This document shows positions 2,468 through 49,431 of a stretch of 64,000 bases of DNA, piece after piece. Under the pieces are notes generated by a model that had not been told where the DNA came from, made no database searches, and worked only from the letters and a program-made list of their open reading frames with translations. Where the stretch lies: IMG/VR virus record IMGVR_UViG_3300012667_000289, positions 7,794-71,793 of that record; one strand, 5' to 3'. The DNA comes from a virus. Its lineage: Duplodnaviria > Caudoviricetes. Within the stretch, counting starts at the first letter, position 1, and every line of letters starts with the position of its first letter. Both the position numbers and the translations under genes were made by a program.

Positions 2468-2755
2468 GTGTGCAGCAGGATCGCACGTAACAACGAAGAG
2501 GTTTAGGTGTAAGCACGTGCGAGACCCCGCTACACATTATACCTAACAAACAAGTCAGTCCGCACACCTAAACACAAAAGACCCCGCTGTCGCAGAGGCT
2601 GCGTACCTGCGGTTGCACAGGCTGTGCTCACACTTTAGATATCTAAGACCTCTAAGACCTATAGGTGTGAACACACAGTCTTTACAGGAGTAGACAGTTC
2701 GCACGTGCAACAATCTAAAGCCTTTGCTGCCTACGTGCGGATTTGCAGCGCAAAT

Positions 2756-2780
2756 AAAAAGCGCATCTAGTGCGCTTTTT
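2756..2780 (-). terminator. Intrinsic terminator for 2796-3038 gene
   Basis: aaaaagcgca-tctag-tgcgcttttt, A/T runs on both sides. Confidence 0.7.
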
Positions 2781-2795
2781 GTGTTACAATGCTGT

Positions 2796-3038
2796 TTAAT
2801 GCGCCATTGCGTTATTAATAGCTATTGCTGCAAGCACTTCTGCAGGAGCTTGTGCATACATAAACGCTTGCACTTCTGCTGTTTGTGCAGCGTTAAACTT
2901 TTCAAAGTAGTTGTCTGCAATATAGTCTGCTGTGTCCCCGTCGCCGTGCAGCATTGCTGCTTTGTAAATTGTTACAATGTGCTGCATGTCGTGCGCTGCT
3001 GCTACTTTAAGCATGTTAATTTGCATTTGCAAAAGCAT
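2796..3038 (-). CDS. Hypothetical early protein
   Basis: CAGGAG RBS (complement of 3045-3050), TGTTATAAT at 3086-3094 on minus strand, terminator downstream. Confidence 0.8.
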   Translation of the reverse strand: MLLQMQINMLKVAAAHDMQHIVTIYKAAMLHGDGDTADYIADNYFEKFNAAQTAEVQAFMYAQAPAEVLAAIAINNAMAH

Positions 3039-4568
3039 TTTAAACTCCTGTTTACTGCTGTGCGTTATTGCTGTGCAGTAAGTATATTATAACATCCAAA
3101 ATAGTAAGTTGTGCGTAAGCATTGTAACAAATTGTAACAGCGCAGTTCGCACATACAAACATCTTCCTGCACAACAGTAACACGTGCGAGCTCTTATGTT
3201 AGTGTGCACATACTAACTTGCCCGCACACGCACAAATCTTCCTGCACAGCAGCAGCACGTGCGAGCGTGCATTGCTTTTGTGTTGTGCGTTTTTTGCATG
3301 TGTCTAGTTTAACACCTCTGCAACGCAGTTCGCACGTAGGCAGCACAGGTATTTTGCATCTAACGTGCGGACATAGCACAGTGTAATACTTTAGTGCACA
3401 GTTCGCACGTAGCGGCAAAATAACCAACAGCTCCTAACGTGCGAGACCCCGCTACGGATCACACGTTATGCACAAAACTCTGCTTTAGATGTTTGCAGTG
3501 CACGTGTGGACACAAACTACATTTAAAAAACAGCGTTAGTCACACGTGCGCAAATAAATCCTGTCGCTTAGGAAAACTGCACACGTGCGAGCCGCAGCGC
3601 AATAACTAAGCAGTTAGTGCACAGTTTGCACAGTTCACACGTGCGCAAATAAATCCTGTCGCTTAGGAAAACTGCACACGTGCGAGCTACACACAGCTTT
3701 AAATGTACAAAACGCAAGTTCGCACGTTAGATGTCGTTGATGTAATTTTGTACACGTGCGAACAGCAACAACATTTAACAAAACAGCGCAGTTCGCACAT
3801 TAGATGTCGTTGATGTAATTTTGTGCACGTGTGACAAGCACGTATAACAGCGCACACACAGTTAAGCTATACAAGTGCAGTAGTAGCAGCAGTAATGCGT
3901 GCAGTAGGGTTTTAGTGCGTTACAGTGTAGTTGTAGCAGCAGCGCAAGCGATAAAGTAAGCAGTAGCGTAAGCAGCAGCGTAATTATAACACAGCTCGCA
4001 CGTGCGCAACTAATTCTGCAGCACAAGAAAATACAAAAACGTGTGAGCTGTATGCATATACAGTAATACTAAATGTTTACTGTATAAAAACACAGCTCGC
4101 ATGTGCAAAAATCTTCCTGCACAGCAGCAGCACGTGCGAGCGTGCATTGCTTTTGTGTTGTGCGTTTTTTGCTGCATAAATTTATTATACTGCCGTTCGC
4201 ACGTGTGCACAAGTAGGTTGCAGGTTAAAAACGTGCGGACTTTAACACACTGTATAAAAACACAGTTCGCACGTGCACACTGCTGGTATTTTGCAGCGCA
4301 CGTGCGAACTACAAAAACAAACAAACTATGCAGTTCGCACGTGCAAACGCATTCTAAGCAGCAAAAAACGTGCGAGCTTTAACAGCACACAAGTTCGCAC
4401 GTGCAAACGCATTCTGCAAAGCAGCGCACGTGCGAGCAAGTAAAAACAAAAATAAATTGTAACAGTTGCAAAAATACAACACAAATATATTTAAATATTT
4501 AAAAAATGCGCTATAATACGTGCACTACATAAATTTATGTAGCAACGCAACTAAAGCAAAAGCACAGT

Positions 4569-4874
4569 ATGCAAAACACACAGTTAGTTTATAATTTTTT
4601 GTTGCAAAATAGCAACAAACAGCGCACAGCAGCAAATATTGCAGCGCACACGCAACTTACAACAGTGCAAGTTAGCAGCGCACTACAATGTTTGCAACGC
4701 AAAAATTTAATTGTTGTTGCTAGCAAACAACACAAAAAACAATACACTTATGTTGTAGCAACACAACACGTTGTAGCAACGCAACATGTTGCGCAAATAC
4801 AACAAAAAAATGTTGCAGCAAAGCAACAAAATATTTTACAGCGCATAGCGCAAATGTTTAAGCGTATGTTTTAA
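4569..4874 (+). CDS. Putative winged-HTH protein lacking D/E/G/P/W
   Basis: TATAAT 4512-4517, leader hairpin, terminator 4886-4915; pattern VYNFLLQ..RTAANIAAHTQLTTVQVSSALQCLQRKNLIV resembles wHTH. Confidence 0.75.
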   Translation: MQNTQLVYNFLLQNSNKQRTAANIAAHTQLTTVQVSSALQCLQRKNLIVVASKQHKKQYTYVVATQHVVATQHVAQIQQKNVAAKQQNILQRIAQMFKRMF

Positions 4875-4885
4875 ACAACACAAAG

Positions 4886-4915
4886 TAGCGCACTAAAACA
4901 GTGCGCTATTTTTTT
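4886..4915 (+). terminator. Intrinsic terminator
   Basis: tagcgcact-aaaac-agtgcgcta followed by T-run. Confidence 0.8.
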
Positions 4916-5933
4916 GTGCACATAGCTCGCACGTGCAAACGCATTCTAAGCAGCAGCGCACGTGCGGACCCCGCTGTATAGCTCGCACGTGTTTATACAC
5001 AACGCACGCACTGTGCATGTAGTTACGTGCGAGCTGCACACAAACGCAAACTTAACACACAGTTCACACGTGTTTATGCACAACGCACGCAGCGTGCATG
5101 TAGTTACGTGCGAGCTACGCACAGCTTTAAATTGTACACAACGCAAGTTCGCACGTGCACACTGCTGGTATTTTGCAGCGCACGTGCGGACACAGTAAAT
5201 TGCGCACTAACTGCTTAATAAACAGCACGCAGTTCGCACGTGCAAACGCATTCTAAGCAGCAGCGCACGTGCGAACGCAGCACAAGCAATTAAAAACACA
5301 ACGCACAAAACAAAACAAAAACACATAAAACAAACAGTACACGCAGTTCGCACGTGCAAACGCATTCTAAGCAGCAAAAAACGTGCGGACAAAGTTGCGC
5401 AACAGCAAAATGCTGTTATAATAAACACATAGCACATTAGCAGCAGCTACGCTAACGCAAATTCGCACGTGTTTATACACAACGCACGCAGCGTGCATGT
5501 AGTTACGTGCGAACTGTATACACATACAGTAGTGCGTATTTCGCACGTGCAAACGCTTTCTAAGCAGCAGCAACACGTGCGAGACTGTGCATATATACAG
5601 TAAGCATTTAGTATACGTGTGTTTTTGCTGCATAAATTTATTATACTACCAGTCCGCACGTGCGCAGCGCTGGTATTTTACAAAAAACGTGCGGACGCTC
5701 GCACGTGTTTATGCACAACGCACGCACTGTGCATGTAGTTACGTGCGAGCTGCACATTACTGTATAAAAAACACAGCTCACACGTGTGCAGTGCATAGCT
5801 GCATGTTGCACGTGCGAGCTAATAAAACAAAAAAATAAATTGTAACAGTTGCGCAAAAACAACACAATTGTGCAGTATAATAACTGCACTGCACAAATTT
5901 GTGCAGCAACGCAAAGTAACGCAAAAGTACACA

Positions 5934-6548
5934 ATGCAAAAATTAACAGCAGCGCAAGCGCAAGCAGCAATTTTGTTGCACGCAAACAACAACACAATAA
6001 CAGCAACGCAAGTACAAAACTTGCTTGCAAATGTTAGTGTTACATTTGCACAAATTACATATGTAACGCAAGTGCAGTTAGCAGCAGCACATAAAGCGCA
6101 AAACATTTTAAAAGTAACTACAGCTAATGTTATGCTTTGCAGCAACATTAAAGCGCATACAAGCGTGTACAAGCGCAAAGTACAGCGCAGTGCAGCTAAG
6201 TATGCGCAAAACAGCGCAAGCGCAGTAGCAGCGTTTACAGCGCAGCAAAACTACTTTACGCATACAGCAGTACATAGCATTGTGCACAATAATAAAAACA
6301 TTAACGCAATGTATTTGTATTGTTTTTATAACAATGCAAGCAGCGTGTATATGCACAATAATGCAGTTGTAACAAAACAACATGTTGCAGCATACTGCAC
6401 TAAAAGTGCAGCAGCTACTTTGTTGCAGCAAAACAACACTGTGCATAATGTAACACATAACATTACACATAACGTGCAAGTGCGCACTATAGCATTACAC
6501 AACATAGTTAGTATTAAAGCACGCAAACAGTTGCTAACTGTAGCATAA
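5934..6548 (+). CDS. Hypothetical 204-aa protein lacking D/E/G/P/W
   Basis: TATAAT 5876-5881 and leader hairpin favour ATG 5934 over track start 5868; terminator 6562-6592. Confidence 0.8.
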   Translation: MQKLTAAQAQAAILLHANNNTITATQVQNLLANVSVTFAQITYVTQVQLAAAHKAQNILKVTTANVMLCSNIKAHTSVYKRKVQRSAAKYAQNSASAVAAFTAQQNYFTHTAVHSIVHNNKNINAMYLYCFYNNASSVYMHNNAVVTKQHVAAYCTKSAAATLLQQNNTVHNVTHNITHNVQVRTIALHNIVSIKARKQLLTVA

Positions 6549-6561
6549 AGCACTACACACG

Positions 6562-6592
6562 CAGCGCACTAAAACAGTGCGCTGTTTTTTTT
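6562..6592 (+). terminator. Intrinsic terminator
   Basis: cagcgcact-aaaac-agtgcgctg followed by T-run; same loop as 4886 terminator. Confidence 0.8.
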
Positions 6593-6937
6593 GTGCACAT
6601 AGCTCGCACGTGCAGCAGTGCACAGCAGCATGTATACGTGCGAGCTGTATACACATACAGTAGTGTGCGCAGCACATAGCTCACACGTGCAGCAGCGCAG
6701 AAAATATTTTTGACACGTGGGGGGCATGTATATACATACAGTAATACTATATACTACGCACGCTTGCTTGTTTTTAACACCAGTGTAGTGCAATCACCAG
6801 GGGCCGAGATCTCCAAACCTTCTTATTTTTGCGCGGCAATTTTTTTGGCTACTGTATAGACCGGGGGCTGCTCCCACTGTGAATCTACTGTAAATAAACT
6901 GTGCGCCCCCATGTGGTGCCATTACTGTGGAATTATT

Positions 6938-41200: not shown

Positions 41201-41398
41201 CTTACCCCATTTGGTTTTATTCCATAATCGCTCATGTAAGTAATAGAGCAGTGTATTAGCGGTCAGTTGGATAACTGCAATTGTTCCAGCCATTGATAAG
41301 TTGTTTGATATCAAATAAGAAATCAAAAAAGTAGCACCCGACCCAGTAATACGCCAGGATACAGTTTTAACTATACTCCTGGCATTAGACTCACTCAA
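41192..41398 (-). CDS. DUF2061-like small membrane protein
   Basis: RSIVKTVSWR...YYLHERLW; TTG start overlapping the upstream stop. Confidence 0.7.
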   Translation of the reverse strand: MSESNARSIVKTVSWRITGSGATFLISYLISNNLSMAGTIAVIQLTANTLLYYLHERLWNKTKWGKLD

Positions 41399-42242
41399 TT
41401 CCCAGTTCCTTGCGAATCTTAGTAGCGCTGATAGAATGCGTTGCTTCGTCAAATACTTCTTTTTCAATTTTGTAGCCAACATCTCTGCCATATGTAATAT
41501 TAACAATATTAGGTACTACTTGAATTTCGTATTGGCCTTGATACAACGGATCTAAATCTCTGCGAATTAAATTTTTAACTTGATCGACTGCAAATGGATT
41601 ACTGTTGTTCCATCCTTGGCAGTCTCGAATTTGAATAACAACTTGTCCAGTTTTTGCAATAGCACGATCAAACAATGCTCTATGACCAGCATGCCAAGGT
41701 TGCCAACGGCCCAGCATCTGCACAGTTTCTTTCTGCCAATTAAATCTCGGGCGACGACGATTTTCTAAAATATGTGTGCCAATAAACTCAGCCCACTTGT
41801 CTGCATTTTGTTCAGTGACTCTAAAATCATAAACTTCAGGTGGAACAAATGCCTTGTTAGTGTCTTCAAATCTACCTTCGTCGATTGTGTCTACCCAGAT
41901 AGTCCAATCTGCTTTGAAGTTATTTCGTTGTTCTACTAAGGGTGCAACAAAATCGCAGATGACAAAATCTCCTGTGCATTTTAGTGCAAATTCTGCCATC
42001 CGCAAACTTTGACGAATACGGCCTTCTCTACTAAAATCCCAATCATTAAATCGCTTACGAATTTCGTCGGCATTGAACCAGTCTACTTTTGCTTGCCAAG
42101 AAGTCGGCGGCAGTTCCATATGTAGTAATTGTTCCATTGGCATGTGATTGGCATTAGAAAAATCTTCTAAATATTTCTTTAGTGCAGTTGCCAAATAAGT
42201 TTTACCCGAGCCAGGCAGGCCCATGATTAAGATTTTTTGCAT
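41391..42242 (-). CDS. Adenylylsulfate kinase-like domain fused to HxGH nucleotidyltransferase domain
   Basis: GLPGSGKT, FNADEIR and DFVAP (CysC-like); C-terminal GRWQPWHAGH. Confidence 0.8.
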   Translation of the reverse strand: MQKILIMGLPGSGKTYLATALKKYLEDFSNANHMPMEQLLHMELPPTSWQAKVDWFNADEIRKRFNDWDFSREGRIRQSLRMAEFALKCTGDFVICDFVAPLVEQRNNFKADWTIWVDTIDEGRFEDTNKAFVPPEVYDFRVTEQNADKWAEFIGTHILENRRRPRFNWQKETVQMLGRWQPWHAGHRALFDRAIAKTGQVVIQIRDCQGWNNSNPFAVDQVKNLIRRDLDPLYQGQYEIQVVPNIVNITYGRDVGYKIEKEVFDEATHSISATKIRKELGIE

Positions 42243-42244
42243 TT

Positions 42245-42541
42245 TTATCCGTTTAACAATTCTGTAACTCTTGCAATCAAGTCGGCATTATGCCATGTAT
42301 CGCGAACTGCATCATATGCATCGCCTTCCCAAACAGTAACTCCACGACGTCCAGAGCCTCGCGTTTCTGTGCGACCGTCTGGATATGTTTCGGTAGTAAA
42401 TGGACCTAATTCAATTTCTACTTGAACTCTGCGATTGCGAAGATCTTCTTGAATTTGCTGAATTGTGAATTCAGTTGTTACTCGGCGCTCGCTTAAAACG
42501 ATTTCAGTGTTTAACGATAATGTATCTACAATAGTTGTCAT
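42245..42541 (-). CDS. Hypothetical protein
   Basis: AAGGAG RBS, late promoter upstream. Confidence 0.75.
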   Translation of the reverse strand: MTTIVDTLSLNTEIVLSERRVTTEFTIQQIQEDLRNRRVQVEIELGPFTTETYPDGRTETRGSGRRGVTVWEGDAYDAVRDTWHNADLIARVTELLNG

Positions 42542-42576
42542 GTTTTTCTCCTTAATGAATACTATAACCTAATTAT

Positions 42577-43446
42577 TTATAGCTGTCTAGATAACACAGG
42601 TATTGATTTTTTAATAGAACTACCAGTAATCCATGTTAACTTATGTCGTTGATCAAAGTTTTGTTTCCAAAAACTCATAGGACTGTATCGATCCCATAAT
42701 TCTCCGGGCAATATACTACGACGATCTTGATATTCTACTTTTCTACGAACTGTATGCAATCCGGTAATCTTAGCTTGATTATCAAATTCGTCGTAACTGT
42801 CTTCTACATTGTCAAAATCGTGTTCGTACCAGGGTTCTTCTAAGAACTGATAAATCTGTTGCATCGCTGCCCTAGGATTTGCCACCAATGTGTCATATTC
42901 TACATAACAAATATGACCAATCTCATTCGAGAACATGCTTTGTTGCACATTGATTAATGGTCCATGAACATACCCACCAAAGTTAGGCATTTCGCCCATT
43001 AGTATTCTGCAACGATCATGCACATTGCCCAATTCTTGATGATGATACAGCGGTTTAATTGTGTAAGGATTTTTAGCATTTAATTGCTCAAAGCTATCTA
43101 AAATCCAAGGCACATCTCTAAGACAAACAATCATCTTAAAGTTAGAGAACAAATCCTTTAACAAACTTGTATCAGATGCCCAACCGCGATTAGTGTTAAA
43201 ACAAACTTCTCGATCATTTTTGTAAAAGCTATCGAACATATCTTTAATAAGTTCACGACGCTTTTCAATAGGAACCGCAGCATCCATACCTACAGCAGTA
43301 TTTGTATCGCGAATAATGCTGTGTGCATATGAGTGCAACGGATCACTAATTCCAGAAGTGAATCTAGGATTTTGTTTCAAGATAGAACTTAACAAGGTTG
43401 AGCCCGATCTCGGTAATCCTGAAATAAAATGATACGTTTTACTCAT
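42577..43446 (-). CDS. Sulfotransferase family protein
   Basis: FISGLPRSGSTLL PAPS-binding loop; CLRDV..ILDS. Confidence 0.8.
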   Translation of the reverse strand: MSKTYHFISGLPRSGSTLLSSILKQNPRFTSGISDPLHSYAHSIIRDTNTAVGMDAAVPIEKRRELIKDMFDSFYKNDREVCFNTNRGWASDTSLLKDLFSNFKMIVCLRDVPWILDSFEQLNAKNPYTIKPLYHHQELGNVHDRCRILMGEMPNFGGYVHGPLINVQQSMFSNEIGHICYVEYDTLVANPRAAMQQIYQFLEEPWYEHDFDNVEDSYDEFDNQAKITGLHTVRRKVEYQDRRSILPGELWDRYSPMSFWKQNFDQRHKLTWITGSSIKKSIPVLSRQL

Positions 43447-45140
43447 TAGTGCTTCTTAACAAGTTTACCAACTTCGGGCAAATACAAATATCGAATGTCA
43501 CTGTTAAACAGTGTAATCAAAGCATCAATTACAGACTCGACTAATGGTTGTCCAGCTAAGTTAAAACTTGTGTTGAACACTAACGGAACACCAGTTAGCT
43601 TATAAAACTCTTGAATCAAGTTATAGTAGTGTTCATTTTGTGTTGCATTGACCGTTTGAACTCTGCAGGTGTTATCTACATGAGTAACTGCCGGAATCTG
43701 TGCGATTTTGTCTGAACGAACATCTACCGCATACATCATAAAAGGACTTGACTCCATGCCTGCCATATCAAACCATTCATTTGCGTGTTCTTCTAAACAA
43801 GATCCTGCAAACGGACGGAACCATTCGCGCTGTTTGACACGATTAACAAAGTCTTTACCGTCAGGTCTACGAGGATCAAATAAAATACTTCGATTTCCCA
43901 ATGCACGCGGACCACCTTCTGCACGACCTTGAAACAATGATACAATGTTACCCTGTTCTATAAGTTGTGCAACATCTGCGGCTGTTACATCAACAATATC
44001 TGCATTTAGTTTTTGTTGTTTGATAAGAGATAACTGATTATAATCAGGTAGTGAACTTAGATAAACAGTTGTTAGTGGTGCAGGAGTGGTGTCTTGTGAA
44101 TACTGAAACCATGCATATCTTGCAAGACCAATAGCAGTACCACCATCGTGTGCAATCGGATCAATATAGAACTTTAAGTTAGGAAAACGCTTCACAAACT
44201 TGTAATTTGCCACACAATTTAGGCCAAAACCGCCTGAAATGACCACATTTGTTTCACCGGTAATATCAACAGCCTTTTGTATTAGATCATACATTTGTTC
44301 TTCGACAGCAGCTTGAACATGATATGCAAGATTCTTATCTACATCACGCACTAGATTAAAATCATTGTGCCATTCTTTAGGTTCAGTAAAACGTTTTAGA
44401 TAAGGATTACGATTTTCGTCAATTTTTGCACCGGCAGGATAAAGAGGCATCAACAGATTTTTATTGCCTTTGCCATTGATAAAAAATTCTGGAATATTTT
44501 CATCATACGATCCATAAGGTGCAAGCCCCATAGTTTTGCCAGCTTCGATGTATCCAAAACCTAAGTAGTCGCTAACTGCTTCATATGCTTTGGTAATAGT
44601 AACACTGTTGTCAAACTCTTGAATACCGTTATCATAATAGGCAGCATTGCCGTCTGCATAACGTTTGTAGACTGCATTAAACTCATGCGGATAATTGCAC
44701 TGATAGATTGTTTCAGTTTCAAATCCGCCTACGGTAAATTGATCATTTACTTGTTCTTGATGAAAAGCGCCGGCACCGTCTACAATAACAGCCACTGCTG
44801 TGTCAAATCCTGAACCGTAAAATGTGCTGGCTGCATGACCAAAGTGATGCAAGTGCCCCATCTTAGTAACTTTAACATTAGGATTGAATTTACGTGCAAG
44901 TGCAGTATATGCATCTTCTCCTGTCCAAGGCAATTGTGAAAGCTGATTAGTTGTTCCGCCAATAACAAGTTCGTCAACAACATGATTAATTAATACATGC
45001 AACATTGCACGGAAAGGATTACCGTCATATTTCATACGGCTCAGTCGTTCTTCTTCGGAGTAGTAGATAATTTCGCCGTCTACTACTAGTGCTGCCGAGC
45101 CGTTGTGGCCCGGATTAATTGCTAAAATGCTGTATGCCAT
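43446..45140 (-). CDS. Carbamoyltransferase (NodU/CmcH family)
   Basis: GHNGSA..EEERLSR.K, SGGFGLNCVAN, GPRALGNRS, KQREWFRPFA and NTSFNLAG. Confidence 0.92.
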   Translation of the reverse strand: MAYSILAINPGHNGSAALVVDGEIIYYSEEERLSRMKYDGNPFRAMLHVLINHVVDELVIGGTTNQLSQLPWTGEDAYTALARKFNPNVKVTKMGHLHHFGHAASTFYGSGFDTAVAVIVDGAGAFHQEQVNDQFTVGGFETETIYQCNYPHEFNAVYKRYADGNAAYYDNGIQEFDNSVTITKAYEAVSDYLGFGYIEAGKTMGLAPYGSYDENIPEFFINGKGNKNLLMPLYPAGAKIDENRNPYLKRFTEPKEWHNDFNLVRDVDKNLAYHVQAAVEEQMYDLIQKAVDITGETNVVISGGFGLNCVANYKFVKRFPNLKFYIDPIAHDGGTAIGLARYAWFQYSQDTTPAPLTTVYLSSLPDYNQLSLIKQQKLNADIVDVTAADVAQLIEQGNIVSLFQGRAEGGPRALGNRSILFDPRRPDGKDFVNRVKQREWFRPFAGSCLEEHANEWFDMAGMESSPFMMYAVDVRSDKIAQIPAVTHVDNTCRVQTVNATQNEHYYNLIQEFYKLTGVPLVFNTSFNLAGQPLVESVIDALITLFNSDIRYLYLPEVGKLVKKH

Positions 45141-46069
45141 TATTTTGTTTTTCTTTCAATATCTGCTACGATACTATTATAGATAGTATTCAATTCTACA
45201 TCACTAAAGTTCATTGCATTTTCGTTTAATCTGTTTGACAAGCTAACATCTAAGCCTGCAATTCGAATAGGACTGTATTTTCTAATCTTGCCCATATCAA
45301 TACAGTTAAAGTAATCTGGATAACTTGTGTTAATAGGGAATGTTGATCCAAAAATAACAGAACCAGGAGTGCCTACTGCACGAGCCAAGTGTTGTCCAAC
45401 TGAGTCACAACCAACAAAATAATCAGCTTCGGCTATCAATGCGCCCCATTGACGTAGATCACATGTGTATTTTTGAGCATACGTATCTTGTTTTAATTGA
45501 AATTCAGGTTCACCGAAGAATATCATATTGTATTTTTGCGACAACTTACGAACTAAAAACAGGTAATCTTTTTGTCCAAGACTGCGGCTTTCTTCGTCAA
45601 TAACTTGATCTCTGTCTAACTTTGCACCACGACCAAATGGTTGAAAGATAACAGTTTTTGGACGCTTCTGTATATTCTTCAAATCATTGATTGTATTTTC
45701 TGCAACCAGTTGTTCTTGTCTATTAAAAATCATAGACGGAACACCGAGATCGCTATGGTCTGTAGTATTGTTGATCTCGCGATCAAATGCCTGCACTAAA
45801 CTAATCTCTTGACGGAAATATGCCGGATTGCGATATGGTTCGGGTGTAATAATTACATCAGCATTCTTAACTACGTTGTCGAACACACCCTTAGTGTCCA
45901 AATTGTATGCACGATCTTGTAATTCAGGAATACCCCAAAGCAAAAAGTCCCATGCTCCGATTAATACTGCCCAATCTGTGTTAGGGTTTAATCTGTTGTA
46001 TTTGAGTAATGCTGGGATTGCTGCAACTACTCTACCGGCTCCGCCGTCGATCCAAAATATTTTTTTCAT
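45140..46069 (-). CDS. GT9-like glycosyltransferase
   Basis: FVGCDSVGQHLARAVGTPGSVIFGST. Confidence 0.7.
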   Translation of the reverse strand: MKKIFWIDGGAGRVVAAIPALLKYNRLNPNTDWAVLIGAWDFLLWGIPELQDRAYNLDTKGVFDNVVKNADVIITPEPYRNPAYFRQEISLVQAFDREINNTTDHSDLGVPSMIFNRQEQLVAENTINDLKNIQKRPKTVIFQPFGRGAKLDRDQVIDEESRSLGQKDYLFLVRKLSQKYNMIFFGEPEFQLKQDTYAQKYTCDLRQWGALIAEADYFVGCDSVGQHLARAVGTPGSVIFGSTFPINTSYPDYFNCIDMGKIRKYSPIRIAGLDVSLSNRLNENAMNFSDVELNTIYNSIVADIERKTK

Positions 46070-46128
46070 AAGTGTCCTCTGCTGATATTTAACTGCTACT
46101 TTAATGGTGTCGTTAATATATTGACTTA

Positions 46129-47019
46129 CTATAACACACTACTTCTGATTTGTAAAACTTTTTTAATTAAATCAGTGTAATTATTTTTAATAAAGTATTC
46201 TTGTAGACTATACTTTTCTATTACGGGTATAGCATTTCCGCCTGATAGCAATAAGTTTGCCCATTCTTCTCCCCACTTGTTTGAAAAATGTTGAAAGTAT
46301 TGCTGGTCTCTTGCCTGTGTTTGTTGCTGAGTTTCTGCACCATCCCAGGTTGACTTGCCGTGATAATGTAGTAGGTAAGATTGACTTGCATACTTTACAG
46401 AAAATCCTGCTGCGACAGCACGCATTCTATAGTCAACATCTTCGCCGCCGCCTGGGCCGTATTCTTCGTCAAATACGCCAACTTTGTCAATAATTGCCGC
46501 AGGAATTCTAAATGCATAAAAAGGCATTAGATGTTGTTCAAAAAATCCCACACGAGATTGTTGCCTATGTTGTCTTACACAGTCAGCTAATGCCAAATGG
46601 TTATTATTGTAATCAGTAAGATACATTGATCTTTCTAACTTTAATGATTTGTCAGTGCTTGTATACAAATGCGTTTGATTACAAGATGGCAATAAAATCA
46701 AGTTGTTATATTGTTTAAGCGGCTCACTCCATCCTGCCGTAAATTCGATATCATTACTCAGTATGACAATATCTCGACCCTGTGCGTATGCAATAGCATC
46801 ATTAATATTTTTTGCAAAACTTTGAGGTGTTGCATTTTCAATAACATGCAACGGTTTGCCTATATGATTACCGGTATGATCATTGTCGATTAACAATGCA
46901 TTATCATGTATTCCTAATTTGGTATGTTTTAAAAAACTTTCAATTGCAGGACTAGTATAATGATCAGAAGCAGACGACGAAATCATCGCATACAATGTCC
47001 CGCTCACTTTTTTCTCCAA
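46129..47019 (-). CDS. GT2-like glycosyltransferase
   Basis: LSNDIEF, VGVFDEEY..GEDVDY..R; start uncertain. Confidence 0.75.
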   Translation of the reverse strand: MEKKVSGTLYAMISSSASDHYTSPAIESFLKHTKLGIHDNALLIDNDHTGNHIGKPLHVIENATPQSFAKNINDAIAYAQGRDIVILSNDIEFTAGWSEPLKQYNNLILLPSCNQTHLYTSTDKSLKLERSMYLTDYNNNHLALADCVRQHRQQSRVGFFEQHLMPFYAFRIPAAIIDKVGVFDEEYGPGGGEDVDYRMRAVAAGFSVKYASQSYLLHYHGKSTWDGAETQQQTQARDQQYFQHFSNKWGEEWANLLLSGGNAIPVIEKYSLQEYFIKNNYTDLIKKVLQIRSSVL

Positions 47020-47804
47020 AATTCGAGATGCATATTTCTATATAAATTAGTCAGTTCTCTGCCAATAACTTCTTCAGGGGGAGGACTTGCTTTTTTCAGG
47101 GTAGGTCTAACATCATGCAGCCCAACAAGTCCGCCGTGGAATCCGTCGTTTTCGTCCATCGGCTGCAAGTTATTTGTATTCAACGTAAAACTATCAATGC
47201 CAATAAAATTGCAAATTTTATCAATTGTAGCCTGTCCATTGCCTACAATATCAGTGTATTCTAAAAACAACATATCAACATTGCCTGCATTAATACCGAT
47301 ACGCAAACTATTGTAAGGATGTGTAATATATTTTTCCCACAAGATCTTACAGCGATTTTTTGTATTGATGGGTAATCCTAAATCAATTAAGTCTTGATCA
47401 ATGTAAGTAACTCTGTCATTATTTTTTTCAATCAGCAAACAATAAGATGCCAAAATATCAGGGATACTGCGAACAGTGCAAATAATTCTAGGATTAAACC
47501 CAAATGCCTGCTGTGCAATATCACCATATCGCGGCCATAGTCTATTTTTATCAACAATAGTAGACTTGTCGATGTGTTTGTAAGCACCATCTATTGTGCC
47601 CAATAGGATATTACTATATTGCTTAGGATCGGGATCAATCAATGCTCGACTAAGGTTAGGCCATTGTTCTCCAATAAGACCTACTAAATCAGCAACTGGA
47701 CTTGTTGTAGATGCATAGATATCCGGATGTTGATTTAACATCGAGCTTAATACTTGACTTCCGGATCTAGGAAGTCCAGAAAGCATTACAAAGTTCTTAT
47801 TCAT
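47004..47804 (-). CDS. Sulfotransferase family protein (second copy)
   Basis: LSGLPRSGSQVL motif; paralogous to 42577-43446. Confidence 0.8.
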   Translation of the reverse strand: MNKNFVMLSGLPRSGSQVLSSMLNQHPDIYASTTSPVADLVGLIGEQWPNLSRALIDPDPKQYSNILLGTIDGAYKHIDKSTIVDKNRLWPRYGDIAQQAFGFNPRIICTVRSIPDILASYCLLIEKNNDRVTYIDQDLIDLGLPINTKNRCKILWEKYITHPYNSLRIGINAGNVDMLFLEYTDIVGNGQATIDKICNFIGIDSFTLNTNNLQPMDENDGFHGGLVGLHDVRPTLKKASPPPEEVIGRELTNLYRNMHLEFWRKK

Positions 47805-48529
47805 AGTTGTCTACGAGGTAGTGTTGGAATACGAGCAGCAGCCGGAGGTACAATTGCAGGAGCACCAACTGTTAATTTCATACCATTTTTATACCAAGCA
47901 GAGAAGTCGCCCTGAAACTTGTAAGGGCCAATATGACTGCATGTCATAGAAGGATCTAACCAAATTTTAAATCCACCGTCGATAAGTTTTTGTAATGCAT
48001 AAATGTCTTCGCTCATTAGGTCATTGTCCGTGATAATAACATCAAATATCATTCTGCGTTCTTTGTTATCTTTCTTATCAATATAAGATTTGCTAGTATC
48101 CCAAAGATATTGCATTGCCTTACGATTCATACGCAAAAATCCGGTACCTAACCCTTGAACTTCGACGAGGCCTGTAGAGGGATCTGTATTATTTTTAGTC
48201 AATTGTCGAATAACATATTCTTCTCGATCGCCTTTTTTTCGATAAGTTCCGCCCACAACATCAACTGGATGATCGAGTAGTTTAAAGAACCATTCAGGTT
48301 GCCACTCGATATCACTGTCGATCCAAATAAGATCGTCAAATCCACCTTCTAATGCTAACTGAATAGTGTCATTGCGTGCACGTTGAATTAGTGCATCGAA
48401 GCTAACCCACATCGGTGTAATTTCTACATCGTGTGTGTAGCTCAGTTTAACAGTGTTAATTAAACTGTTAGTATACCAAACATCTAATCTGCCGTCGTAA
48501 CACGGCGTTCCTATTATTACTTTACGCAT
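47801..48529 (-). CDS. GT-A-like glycosyltransferase
   Basis: IGTPCY, WIDSDIEW, GTGFL and SEDIY. Confidence 0.7.
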   Translation of the reverse strand: MRKVIIGTPCYDGRLDVWYTNSLINTVKLSYTHDVEITPMWVSFDALIQRARNDTIQLALEGGFDDLIWIDSDIEWQPEWFFKLLDHPVDVVGGTYRKKGDREEYVIRQLTKNNTDPSTGLVEVQGLGTGFLRMNRKAMQYLWDTSKSYIDKKDNKERRMIFDVIITDNDLMSEDIYALQKLIDGGFKIWLDPSMTCSHIGPYKFQGDFSAWYKNGMKLTVGAPAIVPPAAARIPTLPRRQL

Positions 48530-49431
48530 ATTTTATTAAAAAATTCTAACCATTCTTTTGCTCTATGATTCCAAGAGTAGTAATCATTAAACCAATTACT
48601 TTGAGCTTTTATATTATAACTGGTTTCTTTGTAATGGTCAATTTCATAATTTAATGTCTGGGCAAATCTTTCTGCCAATAGATCTAAGTCATCACCGTAT
48701 TGATAGTCAACATACGTAGCCCAACTATCACATGTTTCTGGCAATGCACCTAAATTTGTTGTTACTATCTTGCATCCGGCAGCACCTGCTTCAATTGCAG
48801 CAAGGCAACTGGTTTCTTCGTAGATGCAGGGATATGCTAAAATATGACTAGATTGCAGCGCCAGACGAACTGCCTTATTCATTGCATATCCACGATATGT
48901 AATGCCCGGAGTTGTTCGACATTGATGAAATAAATGATCGTGCGTGCCAGCAAGCTGATTGCTATATCCCTTACCATAGATAATATTACTGGAAAAAACA
49001 GTAAGTTCTACATCACTTCTGTTGAGTATCTTAAATGCCTTCAACAATACTTCTAATCCGCGATTAGGTGTCGAAGTATAGATCAATTTGATTTTATCAG
49101 TAGACTTTTCTTTAAACTCAATAGGTTCAATGGCGTTTTTAATTATGTGGGTTTCACTCAGATTCGTTGCAAATCTCTGTGCAAATTGTTGTCTTTGCCA
49201 ATCGCTAACATAGACAAAATGATCAATAGCCTGTATAAAATTATTATCAGCCATTCCCTGTATTGCACCTTGATCGTAGGCAAGATGTTGCCAAATTACA
49301 TTGATTCGATTGGGATCAATATATCTAGGATCACAAACACTTAGGACAAGATTGACTGTTTTTTGCCAATCTTGTCCAGTGTATTTTAATAAATTGTTTT
49401 GAAGTATTTCAGAGCCGCCGAGTGGTCGCAT
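48517..49431 (-). CDS. GT4-like (GT-B) glycosyltransferase
   Basis: YTSTPNRGL, EETSCLAAIEAGAAG..TTNLGALPET. Confidence 0.8.
   Translation of the reverse strand: MRPLGGSEILQNNLLKYTGQDWQKTVNLVLSVCDPRYIDPNRINVIWQHLAYDQGAIQGMADNNFIQAIDHFVYVSDWQRQQFAQRFATNLSETHIIKNAIEPIEFKEKSTDKIKLIYTSTPNRGLEVLLKAFKILNRSDVELTVFSSNIIYGKGYSNQLAGTHDHLFHQCRTTPGITYRGYAMNKAVRLALQSSHILAYPCIYEETSCLAAIEAGAAGCKIVTTNLGALPETCDSWATYVDYQYGDDLDLLAERFAQTLNYEIDHYKETSYNIKAQSNWFNDYYSWNHRAKEWLEFFNKICVK

Follow-up and report, generated by a model that had tools for sequence, protein, structure and literature searches.

A transcription unit lacking four dinucleotides

A gene encoding a 204-amino-acid (aa) protein lies at positions 5934–6548, plus strand, of a 64,000-nucleotide (nt) stretch of DNA, hereafter the window, from an uncultured T4-like giant lake phage (Caudoviricetes). 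The window comprises bases 7794–71793 of a 71.8-kb source record (IMG/VR record IMGVR_UViG_3300012667_000289) with a CheckV completeness of ~20%, and we put the full genome at roughly 350 kb. The gene runs from ATG to TAA, and its product is written in an alphabet of 15 amino acids (A35 N24 V22 T21 Q18 L14 K12 H12 I11 S11 Y9 M4 F4 R4 C3), giving an isoelectric point of 10.1 and a net charge of +16. As the original prediction had noted from the sequence, Asp, Glu, Gly, Pro and Trp, the residues whose codons require GA, GG or CC, are absent, and the codon count is zero for all five. The same dinucleotides are missing well beyond the gene. The 788-bp stretch at 5817–6604 contains no GA, GG, TC or CC on either strand and spans the promoter, the leader, the open reading frame (ORF) and the terminator; on the plus strand, TC and CC are absent from 5779 to 6604. 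Paired inverted-repeat elements flank this purged stretch, one on each side (5778–5817 and 6604–6643), and in the rest of the window the four dinucleotides occur at 0.8–1.0 of expectation.

The protein sequence does not by itself account for this ban. Back-translation of the ORF product with the codon usage of the genome produced 44.6 ± 5.8 forbidden dinucleotides, with a minimum of 24 in 5000 trials, versus none observed. At codon boundaries, each of the 35 third-position Gs precedes C or T, and the 92 codons with T or C in the third position are never followed by C. Because the ban spans codon boundaries as well as the untranslated leader, the promoter and the terminator, the rule targets the nucleic acid and not codons or tRNAs, and a cause at the tRNA or codon level was ruled out on the same grounds. 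Short palindromes are enriched within 5817–6604 (GCGC, 14 versus 1.1 expected; TGCA, 22 versus 2.5 expected), with two copies of GTGCAC and three of TGCGCA. We found no such ban described in the literature, and one that completely excludes four dinucleotides from entire transcription units, at the expense of five amino acids, far exceeds any motif avoidance known to us.

Since TGA is impossible in purged DNA, long open frames are common there, and the opposite strand of the purged stretch carries frames of 119–129 codons. The longest open frame of the stretch, at 240 codons, nevertheless lies outside the null distribution obtained from 2000 sequences simulated with a first-order Markov model trained on purged DNA (mean 97 codons, maximum 212).

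Family membership and selection

A word-indexed search returned 244 homologues at 98–60% identity, nearly all of 203 aa and some of them on contigs of up to 375 kb, with E-values from 1e-112 to 1e-61 for the 120 listed proteins among the close homologues. An exhaustive search extended the family to 162 cluster representatives at E ≤ 1e-3 (121 at E ≤ 1e-10), reaching down to 27% identity. The combined share of Asp, Glu, Gly, Pro and Trp is 0–10% in the close relatives and 13–23% in the representatives of ordinary composition, which are near neutral in charge. Because these distant homologues have an ordinary composition, sequence comparison identifies the window gene as a recoded member of a normal family.

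Comparison with three orthologues on viral contigs gave ratios of nonsynonymous to synonymous substitution rates (dN/dS) of 0.12–0.27 at dS of 1.0–2.8, which is the mark of strong purifying selection. The window gene and its orthologue at locus L001 both contain no forbidden dinucleotide despite saturated synonymous sites; the persistence of the ban at such dS values shows that it is actively maintained. To characterize the replacements, we considered the 20 alignment columns in which ordinary members mostly carry a banned residue. Asp is replaced there by Asn, Gln, Ala or Ser; Glu by Thr, His, Gln, Ala or Ser; Gly by Asn or Lys; Pro by Lys or Gln; and Trp by Tyr. Only 2 of the 20 replacements are Asp to Asn, none is Glu to Lys, and most require transversions or multi-step changes, a pattern which indicates selection rather than G-to-A decay of the kind left by deaminases or ultraviolet (UV) light. 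The original prediction had named this distinction in advance, and the replacement spectrum falls on the side of selection. The window protein keeps every near-invariant residue of the family (A51, K60, Y79, V83, H110, T156, S158 and H179), all of which belong to types outside the banned five.

The family itself carries no name. Pfam, PHROG and NCBIfam yielded no family above threshold for the window protein or for 10 ordinary homologues, with weak sub-threshold matches only, and a profile search of PDB sequences returned a single chance match (E 0.12). A tblastn search of 50,697 phage records with the window protein and an ordinary homologue found no match, nor did megablast of the region, and a cluster look-up yielded no names.

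Transcription and translation signals

The plus-strand signals of the unit are those of a stand-alone transcription unit. A −10 box TATAAT is located at 5876–5881, and a TATAAT-like box 40–65 nt before the ATG is kept in most homologous loci. A perfect 18-nt palindrome (CTGCACAAATTTGTGCAG; 5889–5906) lies at the transcript start and represents either a 5′ leader hairpin or an operator. A strong intrinsic terminator follows the gene at 6561–6592, with a 10-bp stem, a 5-nt loop, a T8 tract and a folding z of −3.4. The TATAAT box, leader hairpin and terminator described in the original prediction are thus all found. A −35 hexamer of the TTGACA type is absent at the window gene, and fully purged members cannot use it because it contains GA. 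What the fully purged loci have in common is TGTAACA or TGTTACA upstream of the −10 box, represented here by TGTAACA at 5841–5847, ~30 nt upstream of that box. Copies of TGTAACA/TGTTACA, often repeated or inverted, occur 30–60 nt upstream of the −10 boxes of early promoters, among them the neighbouring promoter (~1485–1500) and those of homologous loci; no −35 hexamer accompanies them, and they may be a site for an activator or for the winged-helix-like protein encoded at 4569–4874. Ordinary members carry a perfect consensus promoter of the form TTGACA-17-TATAAT, as at L005 and L027, two loci described below, and locus L130 combines TTGACA with a weaker −10 box.

The ribosome-binding site was a feature for which the original prediction needed amendment. 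It had stated that the CAGGAG site of the neighbouring early genes is absent and that the Shine–Dalgarno (SD) sequence had been removed. The genes beginning at 635, 1590, 2094 and 2796 (the last on the minus strand) do have aCAGGAGc ~7 nt before the ATG, and the window gene does not; the SD sequence is, however, trimmed rather than lost, with a remnant AAAAG at 5923–5927 that ends 6 nt before the ATG, at normal spacing. AAAG is the longest SD fragment that the ban permits, and the fully purged gene at 4569–4874 has the same remnant, likewise 6 nt before its ATG. Across the family the site is graded, with GGAG in ordinary members (L006, L027), AAAGG in partly purged members (L007, L012, L017) and AAAG in fully purged members; members banning only GG and CC have a GAGAG-type site, as at L130 and L005. 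At L024, which was purged independently, a GGAG SD sequence is the sole exception to the ban. This graded series and the GGAG kept at L024 mean that the SD sequence is collateral damage, trimmed to the allowed remnant; the rule itself is not aimed at it. The ban has as its consequences an alphabet of 15 letters, a very basic protein, the lack of TTGACA and an SD sequence cut down to AAAG.

We consider it close to certain that 5934–6548 is a real immediate-early gene, that it forms a stand-alone sigma-70-type unit belonging to an unnamed family of ~200-aa proteins, and that the unit was rewritten by selection against GA, GG, TC and CC. The original proposal of a functional protein recoded under a DNA-level constraint is borne out by the homologues, the purifying selection, the replacement pattern, and the reach of the ban across codon boundaries and into noncoding DNA.

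Extent and recurrence of the ban across the family

In loci with enough flanking sequence, the clean run starts 13–185 nt upstream of the −10 box or the ATG, usually takes in the whole promoter, and stops 8–30 nt past the terminator; in several independent loci it reaches 60–100 bp upstream of the −10 box, about the reach seen in the lineage of the window gene, where it stops a few bases past the terminator. At L001, L002, L013 and L016 only the homologue and one or two small neighbours are subject to the ban, and the intervening DNA is normal. A maximum-likelihood tree of 143 sequences, midpoint-rooted and read without branch support values, places members with 0–2% banned residues in at least five separate clades. 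Three of the other purged clades, represented by L024, L025 and L026, ban the same four dinucleotides in their DNA. The protein P0121, with 15% Asp, Glu, Gly, Pro and Trp, is nested within the purged clade and may have regained the full alphabet.

A second flavour of the ban, covering GG and CC only, is found in three further separate clades, in the stretches L130:1–3792, L131:22–1048 and L005:657–1440, with one GG in L131 as the only exception. These loci retain 22–42 GA and 20–45 TC per gene. At L130 the restricted ban spans a 3.8-kb early island, and the L130 protein lacks Gly, Pro and Trp while containing many Asp and Glu residues.

Two observations concern the surroundings of the family members. 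In long assemblies the gene often lies 0.7–10 kb from a contig end (L002, L007, L013, L015, L020, L001 and L004), which reflects either a nearby physical genome end or repeat elements that break assemblies. At L027, an MvaI/BcnI-family restriction endonuclease gene (L027:4221–4931; E 7e-23; CCWGG/CCSGG-type sites) immediately precedes the ordinary homologue, and a NUMOD3 homing-endonuclease-like gene occupies 2588–3229 on the minus strand. A functional link between the homologue and the nuclease was considered and dropped, as the adjacency is seen in L027 alone.

Predicted structure

An AlphaFold2 model built from an alignment of 143 sequences has a mean predicted local distance difference test (pLDDT) score of 96.4 and a predicted template modeling score of 0.90, so that the structure prediction called for by the original prediction gave a confident fold. 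The model consists of two N-terminal helices, a long β-hairpin and a C-terminal small barrel, and is confidently predicted to be an α/β fold, with a small β-barrel core that may be Sm/WYL-like. The best match among solved structures is weak, the Rho inhibitor YaeO/Rof (6jie_A; Z 6.3, root mean square deviation 2.5, 69 aa), followed by the WYL domains of PafBC, BrxR and CapW (Z 4.5–5.6) and by Hfq (Z ~5); these matches cover only ~60–80 residues and are within the range common for unrelated small barrels. Foldseek against the PDB found nothing at E ≤ 1e-3, BFVD returned uncharacterised phage proteins only, a VIA structural comparison gave Z of 4.5 at most, and a feature search of the ESM Atlas yielded no usable match.

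The conserved positions are Lys, Tyr, His, Thr, Ser and Arg, and every acidic residue is dispensable, which argues against metal-dependent catalysis; the conservation would be compatible with nucleic-acid or protein binding. Our guess is that the protein is a nucleic-acid-binding factor or a host-takeover or anti-defence factor for the first minutes of infection. A possible Rho-inhibitor-like barrel encoded in a gene free of YC (Y, pyrimidine) is a lead suggested by the model and not a finding.

Neighbouring genes and genome context

A second fully purged unit (4435–4927) belongs to the same island and holds the plus-strand gene at 4569–4874, which encodes a 101-aa winged-helix-like protein. 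Two further early genes, at 1590–2000 and 2094–2423, are half-purged: the stretch 1473–2481 has no TC and no CC on the message strand (plus), with GA and GG unconstrained. The minus-strand gene at 2796–3038 is the mirror case, its message strand also being without TC and CC. Message-strand YC is missing from each of the five genes of the island, and the ban goes with their orientation. We rejected a symmetric ban limited by coding requirements as an account of these neighbours, as avoidable GA and GG at codon boundaries were not removed (12 in gene 1590 versus 16 in control gene 635). Because avoidable GA and GG are as frequent as in control genes, the strand asymmetry is real, and part of the constraint on the half-purged neighbours is specific to one strand and goes with the direction of transcription.

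Asp is encoded by GAC in 28 of its 29 occurrences across the three half-purged genes, compared with a preference for GAT in late genes (6 GAC and 21 GAT in gene 9962); the ban on TC and CC gives no explanation for this preference. The proteins of 1590–2000 and 2094–2423 are very acidic and could be early proteins of the DNA-mimic type. Between 1237 and 6643 the window carries 29 paired elements of the form YCRCACGT-N24-35-ACGTGYGR, some of which, at 1237–1470, are promoter-like (TTCACA-18-TAAGAT). Paired-element arms account for 41 of the 86 forbidden dinucleotides left in 3700–6790, and many others fall in recurring spacer words (GCATTCTAAGCA, TGCTGGTATTTT).

The gene content of the window includes a T4-type terminase, a tail sheath protein, gp32-like and RecA-like proteins, and large fibre proteins. 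The closest terminase is that of the Pseudomonas jumbo phage PA5oct (53% identity). A complete relative of 322.5 kb (G005, L111–L127), with direct terminal repeats, 48% G+C and a terminase of 80% identity, was searched for a purged run, a member of the ~200-aa family and a TGT-family gene, and none was found. At 41391–49431 a NodU-type carbamoyltransferase gene (43446–45140) stands amid tail genes; the first reading of the sequence also assigned glycosyl- and sulfotransferases to this cluster, which may decorate virion proteins or DNA.

Possible causes of the ban

Any cause, on which the original prediction was silent, must account for a ban that acts unit by unit and includes promoters, that is symmetric here and confined to the message strand in the neighbours, that exists in at least two flavours, and that recurs within one family. 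We tentatively propose, while rating it at somewhat below an even chance, that the ban exists because the phage modifies its own DNA at a short guanine motif, 5′-GA or 5′-GG. The ban would then trace where the host RNA polymerase travels on newly injected DNA. First-expressed units kept free of the motif would remain unmodified and be readable at once by the unmodified host polymerase and regulators, and modification-dependent nucleases could neither sense nor cut them. The half-purged neighbours would have cleared only the template strand of G-purine steps and the most critical units both strands, and lineages whose enzyme reads only GG would ban only GG and CC.

Known DpdA motifs in phages include GA and GA plus GGC. 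The resistance of PA5oct DNA to enzymes points to modification of G in GA and/or GG, the phage carries QueE- and PTPS-like genes, and END nucleases that depend on modification strike phages of this kind at an early stage of infection (PMC12191111). The DpdA motif is GA in phage iggy (PMC10484667), and two distinct motifs were reported in CAjan (PMC7544227). Modification of the DpdA/PA5oct type shares with the ban a reader at the scale of a dinucleotide, and a G-then-purine motif on both strands equals the banned set; the motif varies from phage to phage, as does the flavour of the ban, and PA5oct is the nearest named terminase relative.

Several results weigh against this proposal. No modification gene was found in the available fragments: DpdA/TGT, QueC, PTPS, radical-SAM, C5-methylase, ThyA-like and TET genes were not found in G000–G003, which are records 11–36% complete. 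In the whole genome of CAjan and the first 50 kb of PA5oct, runs free of GA, GG, TC and CC do not exceed 105 nt; as the modification is established in CAjan and suggested in PA5oct and neither has a purged unit, guanine modification alone does not force the ban. Among partly purged orthologues neither strand is consistently given priority, and 7-deazaguanine is, to our knowledge, not documented to block RNA polymerase. The complete relative G005 has neither the gene nor the ban nor a TGT gene, and is uninformative on this point. The literature yielded no report of motif-free early genes.

An alternative, which we judge unlikely, is that the message evades the host terminator Rho: a transcript without UC and CC could not load Rho, and the GA/GG ban would then need a second cause. 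Rho silences foreign DNA by way of naked nascent RNA, and early, weakly translated messages would accordingly be written without YC. The absence of message-strand YC from all five island genes, with a ban that goes with gene orientation, fits this explanation, as do the grip of the primary clefts of Rho on 5′-YC (PMC12360218) and the documented avoidance of Rho by composition, in the form of a purine bias, in bacterial genes (PMC13323073), in which the coding strand is likewise selected against the pyrimidine-C grip. The best structural match of the protein, weak as it is, is also the Rho inhibitor YaeO/Rof, ahead of Hfq and WYL barrels, but this match is within chance range for small barrels. 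Here, moreover, the avoidance is absolute and not a bias, it extends to promoter DNA 60–100 bp upstream of the −10 box at several independent loci, and it includes GA and GG, whose removal at the cost of Asp, Glu, Gly and Trp is left unexplained; the three sister clades that ban only GG and CC retain 20–45 UC per message. Escape from a cytosine-attacking enzyme with a 5′-YC context on transiently single-stranded DNA, either an APOBEC- or DddA-like deaminase or a nuclease like T4 endonuclease IV cutting 5′ of C, would explain the priority given to the non-template strand in half-purged genes, and the tracking of promoter-to-terminator units. The displaced non-template strand of busy early genes would be the most exposed, the most-used units would protect both strands, and the enzyme could be encoded by host or phage. 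GA/GG plus TC/CC is the classic editing context of APOBEC3 G and F in retroviruses, and the CC/GG-only and TC+CC flavours resemble the CC and TC preferences of deaminases. The footprints of APOBEC3 in animal viruses involve the same four dinucleotides and an exposed single strand, but they are genome-wide, statistical depletions with a mutational signature, whereas the present ban is complete, limited to units, selected and non-transitional, and the rest of the genome is not depleted. The lack of a C-to-T or G-to-A footprint among the replacements counts against passive mutation and not against selective avoidance. We know of no bacterial counterpart to these footprints and no such anti-phage enzyme, none having surfaced in literature searches aimed elsewhere, and we regard this explanation as quite improbable.

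Avoidance of DNA-targeting immunity in the first-entering DNA, where early anti-defence proteins would be made before the rest of the DNA enters, has little likelihood in our judgment. Removal of the protospacer-adjacent motifs (PAMs) of clustered regularly interspaced short palindromic repeat systems (GG/CC for types II-A and I-F, TTC/YYC for type I-C) does require a two-letter ban on both strands, a GG/CC-only flavour exists, and the gene is often close to a contig end. The remaining genome is nonetheless open to targeting throughout, the ban applies unit by unit and spares the DNA in between, half-purged genes retain GG on one strand, and palindromic sites, which avoidance of restriction would be expected to remove, are enriched instead. 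Selection on RNA-level signals, namely SD-like GGAG/GAGG, anti-SD-like CCUC/CUCC, the GGAG site of a RegB-like endoribonuclease or the GGA of CsrA, has a very slim chance of being the cause. The banned words are those that build SD and anti-SD sequences, the CAGGAG sites of the neighbours resemble RegB targets of T4, and the window gene has no full SD sequence, but avoidance of 4–5-nt words needs no total dinucleotide ban, promoter DNA is purged as well, the independently purged L024 retains GGAG as its SD sequence, and many GG and GA are kept in half-purged neighbours. Finally, we give practically no credence to the ORF being a compositional by-product of TGA-free skewed DNA or a dead gene decayed by G-to-A and C-to-T changes. 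The opposite-strand frames speak for a by-product, but the 240-codon frame exceeds all simulations, the homologues number in the hundreds and conserve their length, dN/dS is low, the model is of high confidence (pLDDT 96), and the replacements are not transition-driven. Avoidance of UV (6-4) photoproducts was also considered and dropped, given the enrichment of TT and the fact that the strand cleared in half-purged genes, the non-template one, is not the strand that such a model requires.

Comparisons and implications

Parallels exist for early sequence that offers an attacker no hold. The early DNA of T7 and the first-step-transfer DNA of T5, which avoid restriction sites, and messages that resist MazF by lacking ACA, protect critical early sequence in the same sense; the words concerned are 3–6 nt long and cost the protein little, whereas here a class of dinucleotides is banned, five amino acids are lost and palindromic sites of the restriction type are enriched. 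Engineered reduced-alphabet proteins likewise fold from ~13–15 amino-acid types, but the window protein is natural and repeatedly evolved, does without acidic residues, Gly and Pro, and can be compared with full-alphabet homologues.

The ban implies that a reader of two-letter steps in DNA or RNA matters in the first minutes of infection by giant phages. Candidates are the base modification of the phage itself, Rho, or an undiscovered immunity. A doubtful but consequential possibility is that a yet-undescribed bacterial or phage system acts during transcription at dinucleotide resolution (5′-YC/5′-GR, with R a purine; CC/GG only in some lineages), for instance a DNA-editing or nicking immunity that would strike whatever the polymerase opens, and that the 204-aa protein is the first-made countermeasure. 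If so, the gene of the countermeasure itself had to be written in the immune alphabet. The purged and ordinary versions of the gene provide a ready-made assay to identify the reader. The family is also a natural reduced-alphabet experiment, carried out in at least five clades, in which the fold survives the loss of all Asp, Glu, Gly, Pro and Trp, and its full-alphabet and 15-letter series of one fold would be useful for questions about minimal alphabets and about proteins free of acidic residues, Gly and Pro.

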